From an uncultured bacterium (lineage in GTDB: Bacteria > CAZSTA01), in NCBI GenBank assembly GCA_964609495.1, contig CAZSTA010000013.1, forward strand, positions 1 to 34,649: 34,649 nucleotides of DNA, given 5' to 3'. A program made the translations under genes and the position numbers. Within the stretch, counting starts at the first letter, position 1, and each line of letters begins with the position of its first letter. Of the stretch, positions 1 through 18,026 are shown piece by piece. The notes under the pieces are model-generated. The model was not told the origin of the DNA. It saw only the letters and a program-made list of their open reading frames with translations, and ran no database searches.

Positions 1-2503
1 CCACAAAATTTAAAACATCCTTTAATACCCTCTCCAGCTCCTCAACCTCTTGAATTATAACCCTGCTATATCTCCTAATAGGGCTTCCCTTCTCCAGTTT
101 TCTCTGAAGACGACGAGCATAGCCACCTATACATACTAGAGGATTTCTTATATCGTGGGCAACAGTCTCTGTTACCTCGCCAATAGCGGCTAACTTCACT
201 GATTTGATAAGCTGTTCCTGAGCCTCCTTTAACTTAGTGTGAGCGGTAGCCAGGCTATCATACATCTCGGCTCTCTCAATCGCCAAACCCACTTGGTTAG
301 CAAAGGTCATCAAGAAATGGATATCCTCATCAGTGATAGGTTGTTGATTATACAAATTATCAACTACCATAACTCCAACTACTCTATCCTTAGCGATAAG
401 AGGAACTGAAGCAAAAGAAGCACAACCGAGGATATCGGCGATCTCTTTCCCATCGTTAGGATCGCTGTTCGCATCCTTTACATTAAAGGGGCTCCTCTCT
501 AAAACTGTTTTAGCTAGGATCCCAGCCTCTGATTTTATAGGTATTCTAATGGACTTAGCTATCTGATTAAATGGTTTATTATCCAGTTCTTCGATCTTAC
601 CCGTAGCTATAATTAAATCTGCTAGAGAGCCTTTCTGAGAGGCGATTTCGCTCCAGATCCTGCCAGCATCCTCCGGGCTCGATGGTCCTAACCCCATTCT
701 TCCTTCCAATACTCCGTTTTTCTCATCGACCAGGAGCAGAACCGCTCGATTGAAACCCATTCCATCCCCCAAAGTTACCGCGGTAAGGATAATATATAGC
801 AACTCCTTAAGCTGAAGCGTGCCTTGCATAGCTTTGCTTACTTCCTGAAGCATAGAGAGCTTCTTGACCTTAATCTCATTTGCCCGGGCAAGCCTCTCCG
901 CTCTCTCATACAGCCTAGCGTTTTCGATAGCCAAACCAGCCTGATAGGCGAAGGTGGATAACAACTGCATATCCTCACTGGTGATAGCTTTATCCCTGTC
1001 GAAAGCCACTGAAATTATCCCTATGACTTTATCCCCAGCTATAATAGGTATAGTGACAAAGGACTTTGTTCCTGTAGCCCGAAATAATTCTCTAATAGAT
1101 TCACTCAAACGCAGATCATTAAGAGGATCGTTGACCAGAACTGGTCTCTTCTCTCTTATAGCGATCTCTGAAGGATTTCCTTCTAAACCGAGAGGAGTTT
1201 TATCATAAATAACCTCTGGAGTCACTCCCTCTCCAAAGCCAGCTTTGCCAGCTAATACATTCTCCTCCTCATCGATGAGGGCCAGCCATCCCCGATCGAA
1301 GCTGAACTCCTTCACTCTTTGCATAATAAGCAGAAGTTTTTCCTCAAGAGAAGTCGGTCTCAATAATTCTTGAGCTGTAGTTTGCAGATTCTTCATATCA
1401 TCAGCTCTTTTAGTAGTGAAGGCGAAAAGCCTAGCGTTTTCGATAGCCTGCACGGCCTGAGAAGCGAAGGTGGAGAGAAGTTGAAGATCCCCCTCGGTGA
1501 AGCCCTCCAAGGAGATCCCACTGAAGGAGGTTTTATCATATACCGCTAGGCTTCCTATAACCTTCCCCTCGACGAGCAAGGGAACACAAATCAAGCAGGA
1601 TATCACTGATTTAGTCGCATCTGCGAATCTAGGATTGGACCGAACATCGTTTATCAGAGCAGGTTGTCCTTTCTCAGCTACCCATCCTGCTATCCCCTCT
1701 CCAAGCTCAAGGGTCGATTCCTCAGCTATCTTTAGATCTACCCCGTGATAAGCCCTGATCCTCAGCAGACCCTCCTCATCCAAAAGCCTCAAGACGCTCC
1801 CTCTGGCTTTAATAACTCGGGCACTCTCGAAGGCAATAAGATTCAATAAAACTCCTAGATCACGCGTGGAATTTATTGCCATACCGATGTCATATAAAGT
1901 TGATAACTCGGCTAGTCTCTGTTTAATAGTATTATGCAATTGAGAATTGCGAATCGCAGGAGCAACTTGATCCGCTATAGTCGAGAGCAAAGCTATATCT
2001 CTCTGGCTATAATCTCTCCTCTCTACGGTATATACATTGAGCATCCCCAATAAATTCCCCTCATCTACTAGAGGAACTGCTAATTGGGAATTAAATCCTC
2101 CCTCCCCAGCTTTGGGGAAAGGGTCGGTCCCCTTTCCCCACTCCACTAAATCCCGAACCACTATCGGCTTTCTCTCTTGAGCCGACCGACCGGTTATTCC
2201 CTCTCCCAGTCCGATCCTTATCGGTCCCAACGCCTCCTTTAAGGGAACTTTTGAACCTTGAGTTTTATTGTCGGCAAAAGTTCCCTCATCGAGTCCCGCG
2301 GATGCTTCGAGGACTAAATCATCCGCCACTTCGTCCCCTAGATAGATAGAACAAGCATCTATCTTCATCAGAGAGACAGTAGCTTCCACTATAGCCTGCA
2401 ACCTCTCGTCAAGATCGAGGGCTGATCTCACCACCTTGCCGATCTCACTTAATATAGCTAATTCTCGCATTTCTCCTTCAGAATAGCTACTAGCATCGTT
2501 CAT
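1..2503 (-). CDS. Multi-GAF (four GAF) sensor histidine kinase, 3' end truncated by window edge
   Basis: Not in ORF track because no stop lies in the window. ATG at 2503-2501 (MNDASSYSEGEMRELAILSEIGK...). GAF-type segments include GEGITGRSA and GEGIAGWVA. HisKA H-box KLAAIGEVTETVAHDIRNPLVCIGGYARRL (His codon 157-155) is in the same frame as the ATG. Confidence 0.9.
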   Translation of the reverse strand, partial: MNDASSYSEGEMRELAILSEIGKVVRSALDLDERLQAIVEATVSLMKIDACSIYLGDEVADDLVLEASAGLDEGTFADNKTQGSKVPLKEALGPIRIGLGEGITGRSAQERKPIVVRDLVEWGKGTDPFPKAGEGGFNSQLAVPLVDEGNLLGMLNVYTVERRDYSQRDIALLSTIADQVAPAIRNSQLHNTIKQRLAELSTLYDIGMAINSTRDLGVLLNLIAFESARVIKARGSVLRLLDEEGLLRIRAYHGVDLKIAEESTLELGEGIAGWVAEKGQPALINDVRSNPRFADATKSVISCLICVPLLVEGKVIGSLAVYDKTSFSGISLEGFTEGDLQLLSTFASQAVQAIENARLFAFTTKRADDMKNLQTTAQELLRPTSLEEKLLLIMQRVKEFSFDRGWLALIDEEENVLAGKAGFGEGVTPEVIYDKTPLGLEGNPSEIAIREKRPVLVNDPLNDLRLSESIRELFRATGTKSFVTIPIIAGDKVIGIISVAFDRDKAITSEDMQLLSTFAYQAGLAIENARLYERAERLARANEIKVKKLSMLQEVSKAMQGTLQLKELLYIILTAVTLGDGMGFNRAVLLLVDEKNGVLEGRMGLGPSSPEDAGRIWSEIASQKGSLADLIIATGKIEELDNKPFNQIAKSIRIPIKSEAGILAKTVLERSPFNVKDANSDPNDGKEIADILGCASFASVPLIAKDRVVGVMVVDNLYNQQPITDEDIHFLMTFANQVGLAIERAEMYDSLATAHTKLKEAQEQLIKSVKLAAIGEVTETVAHDIRNPLVCIGGYARRLQRKLEKGSPIRRYSRVIIQEVEELERVLKDVLNFV
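2113..2140. repeat. GC-rich hairpin inside kinase CDS
   Basis: TGGGGAAAGGG (2113-2123) / TCGGTC loop / CCCTTTCCCCA (2130-2140): perfect 11-bp inverted repeat, translated WGKGTDPFP. Confidence 0.6.
2242..2286. repeat. Palindromic repeat copy A (45 bp), in frame within kinase GAF1
   Basis: Perfect 12-bp IR AGGGAACTTTTG (2242-2253) / CAAAAGTTCCCT (2275-2286) around a 21-nt loop containing CTTGAGTTTTATTG; minus-strand translation GTFADNKTQGSKVP. Confidence 0.92.
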
Positions 2504-2552
2504 ATCTGACCCCCCATTATAATATAGAGGAGATAAAAGGGGAGAGGCCCCT

Positions 2553-2603
2553 AAAAGGGAATCTTTAACCTTGAGTTTTATTGGAAGCAAAAAGTTTCCT
2601 TTT
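2553..2603. repeat. Palindromic repeat copy C (degenerate), intergenic just after the PEPCK-like stop
   Basis: AAAAGGGAATCTTT-AACCTTGAGTTTTATTG-GAAGC-AAAAAGTTTCCTTTT; shares the loop AACCTTGAGTTTTATTG with copy A; stop codon at 2607-2605. Confidence 0.85.
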
Positions 2604-2604
2604 C

Positions 2605-4224
2605 TCAATGGTAAGGTAGTGATTCTCTGATGTGCGAGGGTATCTTGCCATATTTCCCCTCAAAAGTCTCCAAATATTCCTCTCGTCCCGAAAGGAAGTC
2701 CTTCAACTTACTCTCCAATAATCTAGCATCTGGAAATAGCGGTCTCGCCACCAAAAGATTTAGATCGGCTCTATTGCACGCGATCGGGAAGTGATAACCA
2801 AGATGATCTGTCTCTTGACTGAAGACAAGGCGATTTCTCAGCAGATCATCATAAGTTGCCAACGATTGCTGGAGGTTGATCTCCCTCTCATCTTGCCCTA
2901 TCGTTCCCGTATTAGCTAAGTAACATTGAATATCAGGATTCTTCTTCATAAATTCGTAGAAGATCATAGCATGCAGAAGCCGGTCTCCAGCCACAAAGGG
3001 ATCTAAAAAGAACACTCGTTTGAACTTGCCCGCTTCCTCGGGGTTTCCTCCCGAGGTCTCTATCGATTCGCCATAGATAAGTTGCATCGTCGCTTGTTCT
3101 GGTGTCAACTTTGAGATACCGTTGACTAAGGCGTTTCTGGTGAGCAAAATAATATAATTGATCTTATCTGCCCTTAGTCCTGGACTCGCTAATCCCAAAT
3201 TTTCTCTCGTTATTACTGCTCTTCCATTGGCAGTTTTAGATAGATTCAAAAAATCAGGGACACCATCTTTAAGGAACACGTTCTCCAGAAAAGCATCTCT
3301 TGAAGTCGCAGCTCTAAGTATCTCGGGTTGATCTTCATCTAATCCCTCGGTCTTAATGAACATCCCATTCAACTCGAAGGCCGCGTAAGAACCATCGAAT
3401 CCGAACTGCCCTCCATCGTCTCCTATAACCTCCGAGTATTCTCCAGGTAACCTTGCCAATCCTCGACACGAGGTCGTAGTCTTACCCGTAGCGGTCAAGC
3501 CCGATATCGAGGTAATGATCTCAGTTAAGTTTTCCTTCTTAGAGGCGGGATCATAAGCGCGGAGATAATCTCGTCTAGCACCGGCGTGTAAGAAGAGCCC
3601 AGTTTTATCTATCGTTTTGATTCTCCAATCTTCAAACGTGAAGACCCCCTTCTTACCCTCCCCGGTATAGGTGCTATTCCTACAGATCTTAATTTGATCG
3701 CCTCTCACCTCGCCCATCGCTAAACAAATTTGAACATCTTTCTCGATAAGTCTTTTCTCTTTATTTCGCTCAAATTCTTCATCGCTGAAGAATATTATAG
3801 TATAAGTTGGTTTCTCAACAATTCTGGGAGTAGGTTTATCGAAGAGTAGTTTCAAACCATAAGCTAATTGAGCATGTTTCTCCGGCATAAGGAATCTTGT
3901 AGTAACTCCATCCTTCCCGTCCCCAATGATCACATCGAGCGATATAACATCCTCAGAGCTTAGTATATCTACCGTTTGGTGGGTTAATCTCCTCTCCTCC
4001 TCACCGAACTGATCGTCTATGCTATTTTTGGTGAGAGGTGCGGCTCTCGATGTTGGCTCTGAATCCGCGGCGATTGAACCCATCTTTGTCTCAATTACCC
4101 CCTCCTGCTTCAAGGCTAGATCACGTAGCTGTTCGAGAGAATAACCCTCATGTAATCTACCTTGCTTCTTAGCATCTGAATAGATCTTCTCAGCCGTCCA
4201 CTTAAATTCAGCTTCAATATTCAT
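2605..4224 (-). CDS. Phosphoenolpyruvate carboxykinase (ATP)-like protein, divergent
   Basis: Motifs YTGEGKKG, LHAG, P-loop GLTATGKTT, IGDD, FIKT, NGR and LANTG occur in PEPCK order. Confidence 0.7.
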   Translation of the reverse strand: MNIEAEFKWTAEKIYSDAKKQGRLHEGYSLEQLRDLALKQEGVIETKMGSIAADSEPTSRAAPLTKNSIDDQFGEEERRLTHQTVDILSSEDVISLDVIIGDGKDGVTTRFLMPEKHAQLAYGLKLLFDKPTPRIVEKPTYTIIFFSDEEFERNKEKRLIEKDVQICLAMGEVRGDQIKICRNSTYTGEGKKGVFTFEDWRIKTIDKTGLFLHAGARRDYLRAYDPASKKENLTEIITSISGLTATGKTTTSCRGLARLPGEYSEVIGDDGGQFGFDGSYAAFELNGMFIKTEGLDEDQPEILRAATSRDAFLENVFLKDGVPDFLNLSKTANGRAVITRENLGLASPGLRADKINYIILLTRNALVNGISKLTPEQATMQLIYGESIETSGGNPEEAGKFKRVFFLDPFVAGDRLLHAMIFYEFMKKNPDIQCYLANTGTIGQDEREINLQQSLATYDDLLRNRLVFSQETDHLGYHFPIACNRADLNLLVARPLFPDARLLESKLKDFLSGREEYLETFEGKYGKIPSHIRESLPYH

Positions 4225-4246
4225 TCTAACAACTACCCCCCTTTAA

Positions 4247-4327
4247 AAGGAAACTTTTTAACTTACATATTTTTATCTGCAAAAGTTACCAGAGCACTTG
4301 AGTTTTATCGCCCGTAAAAGTTTCCTT
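4247..4327. repeat. Palindromic repeat copy D (long 81-bp variant)
   Basis: Perfect 12-bp terminal IR AAGGAAACTTTT (4247-4258) / AAAAGTTTCCTT (4316-4327); contains CTTGAGTTTTATCG and an extra internal CAAAAGTT. Confidence 0.85.
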
Positions 4328-4379
4328 GTTACACTAATAAAAACTAACTTCTGGTTTTCAATATTTCAGTTTTAATTTG

Positions 4380-4430
4380 TCTGCAAAAGTTACCAGAACA
4401 CTTGAGTTTTATTGCCCGTAAAAGTTCCTT
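4380..4430. repeat. Palindromic repeat copy E, direct repeat of 4276-4327, overlapping glgA stop
   Basis: TCTGCAAAAGTTACCAGAACACTTGAGTTTTATTGCCCGTAAAAGTTCCTT differs from 4276-4327 by 2 substitutions and a 1-nt indel; its minus strand encodes the GlgA tail RNFYGQ*. Confidence 0.85.
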
Positions 4431-5968
4431 TTATCCACTGCCCTCTTATAAAGCTCTACATATTTTTGGGCGGAAACCCTCCAGGAGAAATCAGCTTGCA
4501 TTGCGTTCCTCACTAATTTATGCCAAGCAGACTTATCCTTATAGGTCTGTATTGCCCTTTCTATAGTCTCGAGCAGAGCTTTGGAGGAATATTCCTCAAA
4601 GACGAAGCCATTTCCCTCACCGGTATCGCTATCGTAATCTTCAATAGTATCGGCTAAGCCTCCTACAGCTCGCACTATAGGAATGGTCCCATACTTCAAA
4701 CTATAGAGTTGATTTAGACCACAAGGTTCAAAGCGAGATGGCATCAGGAACATATCCGCAGACGCCTCGATGCGATGAGCCAAAGCATTATTGAAGGTCA
4801 GGTTTATCCCGGCTTTACTTGGATATTTATGTCCGATCTCAGTGAAAATTTTATGATACTTTGGTAAACCAGTTCCTAAAAGGACGAATTGAATATCAAG
4901 GGACATCATCTCGTCCGCAATCTCAGCCACCAGATCGAACCCCTTCTGATCGACCAGGCGAGATATTACACCTATTAACGGGATATCACCACCCATAAGG
5001 GGAAGGTTATTCTCCTCCAATAACTTCTCCTTATCCTTTCTCTTCCCAGAGAGATCATCGAAGCTGTATTTATAAGGGATCAACTCGTCGATCTCAGGAT
5101 TCCAGACCTCATAGTCTATGCCATTTACAATACCAAAGAGATCCTCGCTCCTGTCCCTTAAAACTCCCTCCAAGCCACATCCATACTCTGGACCGCTCTG
5201 GATCTCCTCGGCATATCTTTCGCTTACGGTATTCAAGAGGTCCGCATACACCAAGCCGACCTTCATGAAGTTGATCTGTCCCCAGTACTCGAAGGGGCTC
5301 ATAGGATAAAACATATCCCAACCGAAACCGGTCAACTCCATTATCTCTTTGGGATATACCCCTTGATATTCCAAGTTATGGATACTATATAGGGTAGCTA
5401 TACCTTTAAAGAAAGGATCGGAGGCATAGAGAGTCTTAAGGTAAGCCGGGATCAATCCCACATGGTAATCATTACAGTGAAGCACATCGGGTTTCCATTG
5501 CAGAGCTTTCAAAACCTCCAGAGTCGCCCTGGAGAAGAAGATAAATCTCTCCGCGTTATCAGGATATCCCAAGCCTGTTTTGGGGTCGGTGTATATTCCA
5601 TCTCGATCAAAGTAGGTGTCGTTACCTATGAAATATACTTCCACCTCGCTATTTGGCAATCTGGAGGTGAAGAGGGAAATATTCTCCCTTTTTTGTCCAA
5701 TTGGAACGTTTAGATCGGGTATATCCTCAATCTTTTCGAGACCAAATTTCTCCTCATCGATCATTTTGTGTTTGGGCATAAAGACGCGTGCTTGGAGATT
5801 CTCGATCTTCTCCAACTCCTTAGGCAAAGCTCCGACTACATCAGCCACCCCGCCTGCCTTGGCAAAAGGAACTACCTCAGCCGCTACGATCGCCACTGAA
5901 AGGGGAACCTTTGAACCTTGAGTTTTGTTGCCGGCAAAAGTTCCCTTTTTCAACTCACTTTGACTCAA
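4409..5968 (-). CDS. glgA: Glycogen synthase (GT5)
   Basis: KxGG motif AKAGGVADV, HCNDYH, IHNLEYQG, ISRLVDQKG, SRFEPCGLNQ; TTG start preceded by SD AAGGAGG. Confidence 0.95.
   Translation of the reverse strand: MSQSELKKGTFAGNKTQGSKVPLSVAIVAAEVVPFAKAGGVADVVGALPKELEKIENLQARVFMPKHKMIDEEKFGLEKIEDIPDLNVPIGQKRENISLFTSRLPNSEVEVYFIGNDTYFDRDGIYTDPKTGLGYPDNAERFIFFSRATLEVLKALQWKPDVLHCNDYHVGLIPAYLKTLYASDPFFKGIATLYSIHNLEYQGVYPKEIMELTGFGWDMFYPMSPFEYWGQINFMKVGLVYADLLNTVSERYAEEIQSGPEYGCGLEGVLRDRSEDLFGIVNGIDYEVWNPEIDELIPYKYSFDDLSGKRKDKEKLLEENNLPLMGGDIPLIGVISRLVDQKGFDLVAEIADEMMSLDIQFVLLGTGLPKYHKIFTEIGHKYPSKAGINLTFNNALAHRIEASADMFLMPSRFEPCGLNQLYSLKYGTIPIVRAVGGLADTIEDYDSDTGEGNGFVFEEYSSKALLETIERAIQTYKDKSAWHKLVRNAMQADFSWRVSAQKYVELYKRAVDKRNFYGQ
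5903..5945. repeat. Palindromic repeat copy B, in frame at GlgA N-terminus
   Basis: GGGAACCTTTG / CAAAAGTTCCC; 40 of 43 nt identical to 2243-2285; encodes GTFAGNKTQGSKVP. Confidence 0.92.
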
Positions 5969-6056
5969 AATATGAACCTCCTTAAATTATATTTTGATCC
6001 AATGAATAGACAAAAGAATTATATAACTAATATTTCATAGGGCTGTATTACTCCTA

Positions 6057-6085
6057 ATGATAACACAATTTTGCCGAATTGTCCA
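6057..6085 (-). promoter_or_regulatory. Putative sigma70 promoter for glgA
   Basis: Minus strand TGGACA-17 nt-TATCAT with extended -10 TG. Confidence 0.4.
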
Positions 6086-6106
6086 GATACAAGGGCTTTA
6101 GGAAGA

Positions 6107-17825: not shown

Positions 17826-18026
17826 AAGCATGTAGAATATTGTGCTAGCGGTTTTGAACTCCCTTAAATCACCCTCCCCCTAACCCCCTCCCATCAAGGG
17901 AGGGGGAAAAGGGCTTTAGTTCAATCTCAGTGTTCCCTCTCCCCTCGTGGGAGAGGGATAGGGTGAGGGGGGAATCACATCCTGATTTCTTGGTAAAAAT
18001 CTACTAGCACGAAATTTTACATACTT
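17826..18026. mobile_element. MITE-like non-coding element with internal REP-like hairpin pair
   Basis: Terminal IR AAGCATGTAGAATATTGTGCTAG (17826-17848) vs CTAGCACGAAATTTTACATACTT (18004-18026), 19/23 match. Internal hairpins CCCCCTCCC-ATCAA-GGGAGGGGG (17884-17906) and TCCCTCTCCC-CTCGT-GGGAGAGGGA (17934-17958). Confidence 0.65.

Follow-up and report, generated by a model that had tools for sequence, protein, structure and literature searches.

Results

Five copies of a hairpin repeat lie among three genes

The window, by which we mean the whole 34,649-nt stretch of contig CAZSTA010000013.1 that was analysed, comes from the genome of an uncultured, free-living salt-marsh bacterium of a phylum-level lineage, whose assembly consists of 349 contigs. 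In its first 6 kb we find three minus-strand genes interspersed with five copies (A to E) of a short hairpin repeat (Table 1). An earlier note on this DNA had placed five related copies here, all in one orientation and with none in the other ~28 kb. All five are present, and a repeat search also recovers them, as families D2-D4; the nhmmer matches (2241-2286, 2554-2601, 4246-4290 plus 4297-4327, 4401-4428, 5900-5947) are all on the plus strand and confined to these five places. The 45-bp unit given in the same note has to be corrected, as the real unit is a hairpin core of 48 nt (16 codons) made of 13-nt inverted arms and a conserved loop of ~22 nt.

Table 1. Genes and repeat copies in the window (CM, covariance model).
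Feature	Position	Strand	Description
Host gene 1, multi-GAF sensor histidine kinase	2..2503 (ORF 2..2608)	-	Pfam GAF_2, GAF, HisKA; cut by contig start
Copy A	2240..2287	+	Simple 48-nt element, antisense, in frame inside first GAF domain of kinase
Copy C	2554..2601	+	Simple element; nhmmer 40.2 bits, CM 56.4 bits
PEPCK_ATP-family protein gene	2605..4224	-	Pfam PF01293, 1.9e-37; flanked by copies C and D
Copy D	4246..4327	+	Composite of two related hairpins; 22 nt upstream of PEPCK-like start codon
Copy E	4380..4430	+	Degenerate composite; nhmmer match at model positions 18-45
Host gene 2, glycogen synthase GlgA	4409..5968	-	Pfam Glyco_transf_5, residues 25-271; element-derived sequence at both ends
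Copy B	5900..5947	+	Simple element; nhmmer 47.8 bits, CM 65.6 bits

Copy A (nhmmer 50.6 bits, CM 66.9 bits; DNA fold -10.9 kcal/mol, z -3.5) reads EGTFADNKTQGSKVPL. Copy B, which reads KGTFAGNKTQGSKVPL, falls among the initial 24 codons of the longest glgA ORF and shares its antisense frame with A. The near-identity and common frame previously claimed for these two copies are borne out: they agree at 41 of 44 positions by blastn-short, differ at three bases over 14 common codons, two of them synonymous, and both sit in one minus-strand frame of the kinase ORF and the glycogen synthase ORF, respectively. A Shine-Dalgarno-like AAGGAGG precedes by 7 nt the TTG at 5968 that starts the longest glgA ORF; if an alternative GTG just downstream of copy B is the true start, copy B could instead be 5' leader.

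Copy C follows the PEPCK-like stop codon (2605-2607) at a distance of 3 nt and precedes the ATG at 2503, the likely start of the kinase. In copy D, where two nhmmer matches adjoin (model 1-46 and 18-48), an outer left arm is followed by a second hairpin's loop and right arm (B-type), after which come the A-type loop and right arm. The right arm of copy E overlaps the 3' end of glgA and is the source of its last codons and TAA stop (ORF end 4409). Local mis-assembly, which would have undone the earlier observation, is unlikely since Logan contigs of independent runs bridge both copy A (X2 record 10, 2193-2580) and copy B (X1 record 8). No RNA run was found to contain the stretch. No polymorphism of the window's own copies was seen in the Logan contigs (no joints), and contigs of the sister population considered below do not cover the region.

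The repeat forms a genome-wide family kept mostly outside genes

Further copies, which the earlier note had named as a test, are plentiful: an iterated nhmmer profile gives 215 matches at ~174 loci in the 3.78 Mb assembly, on both strands (114 plus, 101 minus), 165 of them near full length, and a covariance model gives 137 matches genome-wide (150 candidates scored). The arms are perfect inverted repeats and the loop is conserved as strongly as the arms. Three arm types cover 81 of 104 full copies, with one stem position covarying (A-T 33, T-A 32, G-C 16), as expected if pairing itself matters. Stem cells are paired in 87% of cases, and the covariation score, which reflects a single stem position only, is 0.076 versus 0.051 in shuffles, a value attained in one of 500 shuffles. 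With AT-rich stems around a 22-nt loop the hairpins do not look like terminators, and an Rfam search with the element returned no match.

Selection against coding sites keeps the element mostly outside genes: by the gene calls of a simple ORF caller made for this analysis, 172 of the 215 matches (80%) are intergenic, against 11.3% expected at random, and 14 (~6%) are internal to genes, against 68% expected. Intergenic copies lie a median of 51 nt past the upstream stop and have no preferred orientation with respect to transcription (60 to 56), and several copies of the family directly adjoin stop codons or Shine-Dalgarno sequences. The family is also locally clustered, with 26 inter-copy gaps below 2 kb where random placements give a mean of 13.9, and of 33 neighbouring pairs less than 3 kb apart, 26 have the same orientation (P = 0.0013). 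Some copies are nested, either within the loop of a related element or within a GC-rich repeat module; mosaics with GC-rich modules occur, four copies sharing one GC-rich flanking module, and the nested architecture of copy D recurs at ~100-nt composites elsewhere in the genome. The covariance model detected no copy in 149 other genomes, a set in which the host is the sole member of its phylum, and a peptide-pattern scan that took one genome from each of 185,579 species turned up no more than two matches, both single and weak. The element is a new family, RPE-like in kind.

In-gene copies share one reading frame and fill sites that are empty in homologues

The in-frame internal copies number 14 matches at 13 sites. 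Their host genes include the GAF kinase (copy A), GlyS, HypF, RACo, phosphoglucomutase and a DnaA-like ATPase, in all of which Pfam domains are recognised on either side of the insert, and the proposal that the same peptide is written into unrelated proteins holds beyond the window for GlyS, RACo, TPR-SLT, TPR-Roadblock and Wzy-like proteins. One hydrophilic antisense frame (GTFAxNxTQGxKVP) is used in 11 of the 14 internal matches, while its share among the stop-free frames of 77 intergenic copies is 0.25 (P = 3.6e-5); in HypF and phosphoglucomutase the element has the opposite orientation and is read in another frame. Copies that survive inside genes are thus whole-codon, stop-free and nearly always in the frame that gives a hydrophilic 16-mer rich in Gly, Thr, Asn, Lys and Gln. 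This reading-frame filter suggests that in-gene copies are translated and that the peptide matters, and the host proteins are probably still functional.

As judged by alignment, the 16-mer occupies positions where homologues have no residues. Empty sites of the kind called for in the earlier note are seen as an exact 16-residue gap at the position of copy A in the solved GAF domains 3e0y, 3trc and 3ci6, and at the HypF insertion in the solved homologue 4g9i. No residue stands opposite the insert in 72 of 120 GAF homologues, and none of 14 GlgA homologues carries the copy B segment. In the AlphaFold (AF2) model of the GAF domain, the sole case modelled (mean pLDDT 84.2, pTM 0.81), residues 71-90 have pLDDT 57-60 and no regular structure, so that copy A is predicted as a low-confidence loop in an otherwise confident fold.

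Insertions differ between closely related populations

The deciding evidence comes from orthologous sites, both empty and filled, in a sister population, 87-96% identical, from public metagenomes. Of the 13 assessable element loci on sister contigs, five are common to both populations and eight are without the element in this genome; six of the eight are clean differences, with a net length of 49-52 nt or a 103-nt composite. Conversely, among the seven copies of this genome that lie in aligned regions, the in-frame copy in RACo is missing from the sister, which is shorter there by 51 nt net (17 residues) and keeps an intact reading frame. At another locus the sister has a simple copy where this genome has a composite. 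Presence/absence polymorphism thus runs in both directions between the two populations, and the element has been recently mobile: insertions arise and differ between close relatives. JGI metagenome contigs L075 and L077 are identical to this genome and carry the copies.

Target sites and candidate enzymes

Target-site duplications, which the earlier note had named as a thing to look for, were not consistently found, the net insertions measuring 49-52 nt. Against shuffled partners, the 92 unique copies show no excess of direct repeats for k = 2-6, and the clean polymorphic sites aligned (a set that leaves out L091) are, apart from one, without duplication. That one (L081:919-966) is compatible with duplication of TA, which is present on both sides of the element and single in the empty allele, and would misfit a strict no-duplication mechanism. 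The flank logo is weak, and no conserved target tetranucleotide stands out beside the element.

In line with what had been noted, no mobilising enzyme was found in the window, and no insertion sequence (IS) or HUH/RAYT enzyme could be tied to the element in the fragmented assembly as a whole. A PF01797 search found no full RAYT gene, which in so fragmented an assembly does not prove absence; the sole Y1_Tnp match is truncated (profile positions 37-104 of 121, in an 80-residue open frame) and lies beside a ParA gene on a small AT-rich contig, C343, that carries no element. Four TnpB-like loci are present, of which only one, truncated, adjoins a copy (60 nt), and neither of two DDE_Tnp_1 loci has an adjacent copy. 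DDE_3 was searched for in the assembly and not found. The contig with the single DUF559 match carries one copy of the element, ~15 kb away from the match, and a single GIY-YIG match falls in a 613-residue reading frame that is presumably UvrC. No multi-copy IS above 300 bp with the ends of the element was found in the assembly, which may lack IS copies. Arm pairs 80-4000 nt apart did not enclose a transposase gene but were pairs of neighbouring copies.

Discussion

The suggestion of the earlier note that this is an RPE-like selfish element is strengthened by copy number, by the peptide in unrelated proteins, by the empty sites and by the sister polymorphism. We consider it very likely that the repeat is a mobile selfish hairpin element that is read through in frame, and hold with good confidence that it is non-autonomous, recently active and built on a 48-nt core. 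As to how it moves, we tentatively suggest a single-strand mechanism without target duplication, which is possible but far from assured. The element would move as a folded single strand, which a hairpin-recognising enzyme would cut and join in trans without target-site duplication; a HUH/Y1-type enzyme (RAYT or IS200-like) or a still unrecognised nuclease would be candidates, and movement would often be short-range, with orientation kept.

An ordinary MITE is a somewhat unlikely alternative. The 13-nt arms would then be terminal inverted repeats for the DDE transposase of an IS that the fragmented assembly lacks or has collapsed, and 2-3 duplicated target bases would merge into the A/T-rich ends of the element. 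Such terminal repeats are indeed present as perfect inverted arms, net insertions equal the 48-nt core plus 1-4 nt, one site has the TA arrangement described above, and with 349 contigs IS copies may be unassembled. However, the absence of a direct-repeat excess and of duplication at the other clean sites, the lack of any arm pair around a transposase gene, the failure to find DDE_3 and the two DDE_Tnp_1 loci without adjacent copies all speak against it, as does a stem position that covaries between subfamilies. We find it quite improbable that the copies are functional cis elements (an mRNA 3' stabiliser, a terminator or a protein-binding site in the loop) made abundant by selection, with the in-gene copies as by-products. 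The intergenic bias, the position shortly past stop codons, the adjoining Shine-Dalgarno sequences and a loop as conserved as the arms would all suit such a role, but the lack of orientation bias, the AT-rich stems with their long loop and the missing Rfam match do not, and fast turnover (8 of 13 assessable loci unshared) together with insertions in unrelated ORFs fits a parasite better. A mobile element may nevertheless have taken on a function as well.

If copies spread mostly through recombination, gene conversion or replication slippage among existing repeats, with no element-specific enzyme, this could account for copy D and similar composites that carry a deletion between like arms, for the locus that is composite here and simple in the sister, for the GC-rich flanking module common to four copies and for same-orientation clusters. 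We nonetheless rate such spread as very improbable, since there are clean insertions at unique, unrelated sites without an earlier repeat, in intergenic sequence as well as inside the GAF and HypF genes, and conversion cannot seed these. That the shared peptide is an ancestral or convergent motif, or the copies assembly artefacts, is barely credible: only the first impression of a 14-mer common to two proteins favors it, whereas the copies resemble one another as DNA, synonymous positions included, non-coding copies share the resemblance, the segment is missing from homologues, independent runs bridge copies A and B, and the JGI contigs carry the copies.

Among known repeats, the element resembles Rickettsia palindromic elements (RPEs), which are palindromes dispersed between genes and in frame in unrelated housekeeping genes, with a conserved peptide compatible with the host fold and, as here, no known mobilising enzyme (PMC10969869, PMC3184786). 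The repeat in frame in unrelated genes and the conserved 16-mer (14 matches, 13 sites) are found here too. In size it differs, as RPEs are given as about 105-146 bp (PMC3184786) to ~150 bp (PMC10969869). Nearly half of RPEs, from three of ten families, are moreover stated to lie within genomic ORFs (PMC10969869), in contrast to ~6% of matches here. The RPE host is an intracellular alphaproteobacterium, whereas ours is a free-living lineage. We use RPE-like for behaviour; judged by its length, the element belongs to none of the Rickettsia families RPE-1 to RPE-10.

REPs, put at ~35 nt (PMC3184786), and REPINs (PMC3116915) are likewise short, mostly extragenic hairpins that often form mosaic clusters with other repeats, keep their pairing and lack a target duplication; they are mobilised by RAYT (Y1 HUH) transposases, whose genes the repeats typically flank. 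Extragenic short hairpins, mosaic clusters and the missing duplication signal are traits of our element as well, but no RAYT gene accompanies it beyond the truncated Y1_Tnp fragment, and it differs from REPs in its AT-rich stems and long conserved loop. To our knowledge, in-frame copies inside genes are not a described REP feature. In IS200/IS605 palindrome-associated elements and cyanobacterial small repeats, insertion depends on a hairpin and occurs without duplication, and very small repeats nest in one another; the IS200/IS605 derivatives go with TnpA(Y1) or TnpB and a conserved target 5' of the left end. Nesting of very small repeats without consistent duplication is seen here too, yet no conserved target tetranucleotide is apparent and only one TnpB-like locus of four, truncated, is adjacent. 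MITEs such as ERIC/RU, Coxiella QMITE1/2, Correia and BOX are also non-autonomous inverted-repeat elements, and some copies fuse in frame with genes or replace their 3' ends, compare copy E and glgA (PMC5896051, PMC2759123, PMC10969869). They measure 100-400 bp and usually have 2-11-nt direct repeats (PMC5896051); our element lacks consistent duplication, and no parental IS was found.

In-frame selfish DNA, best known from Rickettsia, is hereby extended to a free-living, uncultured phylum-level lineage and to an element of no more than 16 codons. A single data set shows polymorphism in both directions between two natural populations, strong exclusion from coding sequence and a reading-frame filter. 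We also mention an unlikely reading: the element would be a 'coding-competent' parasite, its frame shaped into a benign flexible 16-residue loop so that it colonises essential genes. Its movement would be due to a host enzyme, or to one outside all recognised transposase families, which would act on a ~50-nt single-stranded hairpin, prefer other hairpin repeats as targets and hop locally with orientation kept. If so, the lineage would hold a minimal transposition system and a natural source of protein loop insertions. The GAF sensor, HypF, GlyS, RACo and phosphoglucomutase are natural experiments on the tolerance of a fold to a 16-residue loop. For annotation, repeats of this type account for unusual N-terminal extensions, replaced C-termini and domain matches broken in two.

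Repeat copies in the window

All five of the repeats named in the earlier note are present, with every nhmmer match on the plus strand, and the profile gives no match in the remaining ~28 kb of the window, as that note had held. They lie in a region (2100-6100) occupied by three minus-strand genes, and a repeat search of the window groups them into families D2-D4. Copies A and B are near-identical as claimed (41/44 by blastn-short), and three base differences fall within their 14 shared codons, two of them synonymous. Folded as single-stranded DNA, copy A forms a stem of 12 bp around a ~21-nt loop (-10.9 kcal/mol, z = -3.5), and copies B and C give weaker folds.

Positions of the element copies and of the genes around them in the window
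Feature	Position	Strand	Basis
Multi-GAF sensor histidine kinase	ORF 2..2608, likely start ATG at 2503	minus	Pfam
PEPCK_ATP-family gene	2605..4224	minus	Pfam
Glycogen synthase glgA	4409..5968	minus	Pfam
Copy A	2241-2286	plus	iterated nhmmer profile
Copy C	2554-2601	plus	iterated nhmmer profile
Copy D	4246-4290 plus 4297-4327	plus	iterated nhmmer profile
Copy E	4401-4428	plus	iterated nhmmer profile
Copy B	5900-5947	plus	iterated nhmmer profile

Copy B is in frame between a TTG start codon (5968), preceded by a strong Shine-Dalgarno-like sequence, and the conserved N-terminus of GlgA, and judging from this context it is likely translated; a GTG directly after the copy is an alternative possible start. 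At the other end of the same gene (4409-4430), the final codons and the stop lie in the right arm of copy E, so that GlgA has element-derived sequence at both ends. The arrangement at copy E is a C-terminal replacement, as reported for other MITEs in passages of two papers (PMC5896051; PMC3184786 section 15).

A genome-wide family of small hairpins

When the search was extended to the full assembly (G000; 3.78 Mb, 349 contigs, 43.8% G+C, with the window as contig C13), a check that the earlier note had proposed, the profile converged on 215 matches, far beyond the five copies of the window. These are split between the strands (114 plus, 101 minus), 165 of them cover the 48-position model nearly completely, and they reduce to 174 loci once adjoining matches are merged. 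A covariance model built from 33 copies, with which only 150 candidates were scored, recognises 137 copies.

The unit consists of 13-nt A/T-rich inverted arms with a conserved loop of ~22 nt between them. Three arm types account for 81 of the 104 full copies and differ at one stem position, in both arms and in a compensating manner (A-T, n = 33; T-A, n = 32; G-C, n = 16); the other 23 arm combinations occur once each. In the 33-copy alignment 87% of the stem cells are paired, counted on the stated structure, and the covariation score of 0.076 is equalled in 1 of 500 shuffles. RNAalifold did not choose the long-range stem on the copy alignment, in which indels put a few rows out of register. 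These data suggest that base pairing itself is maintained in the element, although the evidence is modest because a single pair covaries. There is also a second loop type (B-type), and in composites of ~100 nt an A-type copy holds a B-type hairpin between its left arm and its loop; copies D and E of the window are such composites, with deletion or decay.

Searches of other genomes and of reference collections gave no convincing copy. A covariance-model search of 149 other genomes detected the element in none of them, Rfam gave zero matches at E up to 1, and blastn against plasmid and phage collections gave zero matches. A peptide-pattern scan covering 185,579 species at one genome apiece returned only two single weak loci in unrelated MAGs, which we take as chance. 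One of the two, L073, reaches 19 bits by covariance model and lacks a clean inverted repeat.

Parts of the window occur in 18 runs, none of them listed as RNA, which come from 15 metagenome studies of salt marsh, marsh and marine sediment. Local mis-assembly, which the earlier note had raised against itself, is made unlikely by contigs from independent runs that bridge copies A and B. Of the contigs of four runs over the window, most break at repeats, none joins the two flanks of a copy directly, and none comes from a sister strain.

Exclusion from coding sequence and choice of frame

With genes taken from our simple ORF caller (3014 genes, 86.4% coding sequence), 172 of the 215 matches are intergenic, 14 are internal to genes (at 13 sites), 11 overlap a stop codon or lie within 20 codons of one, and 18 fall within the first 40 codons of the longest ORF, an ambiguous class. 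By chance, 48-mers at random positions would be 11% intergenic and 68% internal, and the excess of intergenic copies is highly significant (P ~1e-120). Between co-directional genes the intergenic copies show no orientation bias (60 sense vs 56 antisense), and the gene-internal copies are antisense in 12 cases and sense in two.

The peptide recurs in other proteins of the genome, a point that the earlier note had proposed to check: 11 of the 14 internal copies use one and the same frame, reading K-G/E-T-F-A-x-N-K/R-T-Q-G-S/K-K-V-P/S-F/L. This frame is stop-free in 62% of 77 intergenic full copies, and three other frames are so in 44-55%; if the absence of stops were the sole requirement, the expected share of the preferred frame would be 0.25 (P = 3.6e-5 for the share seen). 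The open frames that are not used encode hydrophobic or strongly basic peptides. We read the frame bias as purifying selection on the translated product, which would point indirectly to translation of the copies inside genes.

Empty sites in homologous proteins

Pfam domains flank the insert on both sides in the GAF kinase, the GlyS beta subunit (where the domain match is divided into two stretches), RACo, HypF, phosphoglucomutase and a DnaA-like ATPase. They lie on one side only in the TPR-SLT, TPR-Roadblock, Wzy_C, DUF6259 and PMT_2 proteins, a methyltransferase and YbeY, and Pfam gave zero matches for one host protein (L002). Solved structures contain the empty sites that the earlier note had called for: an exact gap of 16 residues stands opposite copy A in the GAF domains 3e0y, 3trc and 3ci6, and another opposite the sense-orientation copy in HypF (4g9i). 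In GlyS (8ie2), chain residues 337/338 are contiguous where the query carries 30 extra residues; ~30 query residues are unmatched in the phosphomannomutase 1tuo, where 1wqa aligns part of the same stretch, and the RACo insert falls in a linker that does not align with solved structures.

Across 120 homologues of the GAF kinase (best 39% identity), the 16-mer faces a complete gap in 72 and 1-16 residues in the remaining 48, mostly gap placement in those inspected. AlphaFold2 models the first GAF domain well from a 61-sequence alignment (mean pLDDT 84.2, pTM 0.81), and places insert residues 71-90 between two strands with pLDDT 57-60 and without regular structure, so that in the model the insert looks like a tolerated loop. 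Fourteen GlgA homologues (the best at 61% identity, from 5.8 billion proteins) all lack the peptide of copy B; in these, 5-11 N-terminal residues precede the start of the conserved fold, a length pattern that the window's GlgA matches once 16 residues are subtracted.

Insertion polymorphism against a sister population

G000 is the sole member of its phylum in the genome set compared, where its other relatives are only at domain level, and close orthologues were therefore sought in metagenomes. Scanning JGI metagenome contigs with an alignment of the element-encoded peptides gave 20 loci in three metagenomes, of which seven are 99.8-100% identical to G000 and 13, at 87-96% identity, represent a sister population. 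Fifteen element loci of the sister were compared: five are shared with G000, six have a clean empty site there, two show a complex difference in which G000 has no element, and two are not assessable, one flank being unmatched. In all six clean cases the flanking anchors in G000 have 0-2 nt between them or share one base, and those in the sister are separated by 49-52 nt or by a 103-nt composite. In the reverse direction, seven G000 copies lie where sister contigs align. One of them, the in-frame copy in RACo (51 nt, 17 residues), is missing from the sister, whose gene reads straight through, and one more locus is composite in G000 and simple in the sister. The empty orthologous sites anticipated in the earlier note thus exist in both directions, which implies insertions in both lineages since their split, one of them into coding sequence.

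At one sister locus (L081:817-966) the element stands six bases upstream of a tRNA-Sec gene, and the orthologous G000 site (contig C128, ~1850) is empty. At another (L088:960-1712) an extra gene of ~760 nt, absent there in G000, lies beside a shared element copy; its 250-residue product looks by eye like an ordinary metal-dependent hydrolase and not like a transposase.

Insertion into other repeats

Many copies form mosaics with unrelated GC-rich hairpin modules. A second, GC-rich hairpin family of 43 nt (window 17930-17972; 284 blastn-short matches on 174 contigs) lies within 80 nt of 31 of the 215 AT-rich matches, in joint mosaic intergenic arrays. A third repeat, a GC-rich module of ~40 nt, is in frame in RACo of both populations (L088:3084-3345; C16:9395-9490), and is itself dispersed, with 42 blastn-short matches in the genome. 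The AT-rich hairpin sits inside this module, at the same position, at four sites (GlyS, RACo, the unnamed protein L002 and contig C52). From the identical flanks at these four sites a composite unit of ~90 nt was considered; it was rejected, as the sister RACo allele keeps the module alone. The module without the hairpin in that allele indicates that the module came first and the hairpin was inserted later, and the whole points to a preference of the element for other repeats as insertion targets.

Relation to known elements and possible mechanism

The observation in the earlier note is confirmed, and its interpretation as an RPE-like selfish element read in frame is supported. Insertion polymorphism in both directions, the scarcity of copies in coding sequence and the filter on reading frame make this case unusually well documented. 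The behaviour matches that of Rickettsia palindromic elements as summarised in parts of PMC10969869 and PMC3184786. By those descriptions the element is nevertheless not an RPE, either by host or by size (48 nt vs about 105-150 bp), and it is a new family within the known phenomenon of RPE-like in-frame palindromes. There is a partial match to the intragenic and ORF-fusing MITEs of enterobacteria and Coxiella, as far as these are described in PMC2759123 and PMC5896051. Its small size and its occurrence in mosaics bring it closer to REP/REPIN elements, as portrayed in PMC3116915, although the assembly gave no RAYT. Literature searches by description, not by sequence, gave no account of a 48-nt in-frame hairpin family, which weakly suggests that the family is undescribed so far.

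Direct repeats of 2-6 nt at the borders of 92 unique full copies are no commoner than with shuffled partners, and in most of these copies the palindrome extends by one A/T pair. Among the clean polymorphic sites aligned base by base (all except that of sister locus L091), the insertion at L081:919-966 is compatible with a TA duplication whereas the others are not. The 26 further window ORFs of at least 110 residues are ordinary metabolic and envelope genes with no transposase or nuclease among them, in agreement with the earlier statement that no mobilising enzyme is visible there. The proposed search for an IS or HUH/RAYT transposase with matching ends came out negative, as none is linked to the element in the 349-contig assembly, where no multi-copy IS is assembled and no arm pair encloses a gene. 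For an ordinary DDE-dependent MITE, the main rival explanation, the assembly offers two DDE_Tnp_1 loci, neither with an adjacent element copy, and no DDE_3 match; an IS copy may have been left unassembled. Of four TnpB-like loci one, truncated, adjoins an element. One DUF559 match lies ~15 kb from the sole element copy on its contig, and one GIY-YIG match falls within a 613-residue reading frame that we take to be UvrC. Y1_Tnp matches a single truncated IS200-type TnpA fragment on contig C343 (L026); this small, AT-rich contig (1691 nt) has a ParA-like gene and zero element copies, and may be plasmid-derived or a binning stray.

We tentatively prefer a model, which we would not yet call probable, in which the hairpin would move as a single strand and be handled in trans by an HUH-type or an unrecognised nuclease, because no consistent duplication was seen, pairing appears to be maintained and hairpins are inserted into hairpins.

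Local clustering

Gaps of less than 2 kb between loci number 26, where 300 random placements gave 13.9 on average and 25 at most, and the window itself has four same-strand loci within 3.7 kb. Neighbours less than 3 kb apart have the same orientation in 26 of 33 pairs (P = 0.0013), compared with 12 of 29 farther apart, which hints at local spread with orientation preserved. Comparison of the genome with itself also reveals several genes duplicated in tandem (0.9-3.1 kb, 86-99% identity) on contigs C1, C29, C12, C94, C38 and C62.
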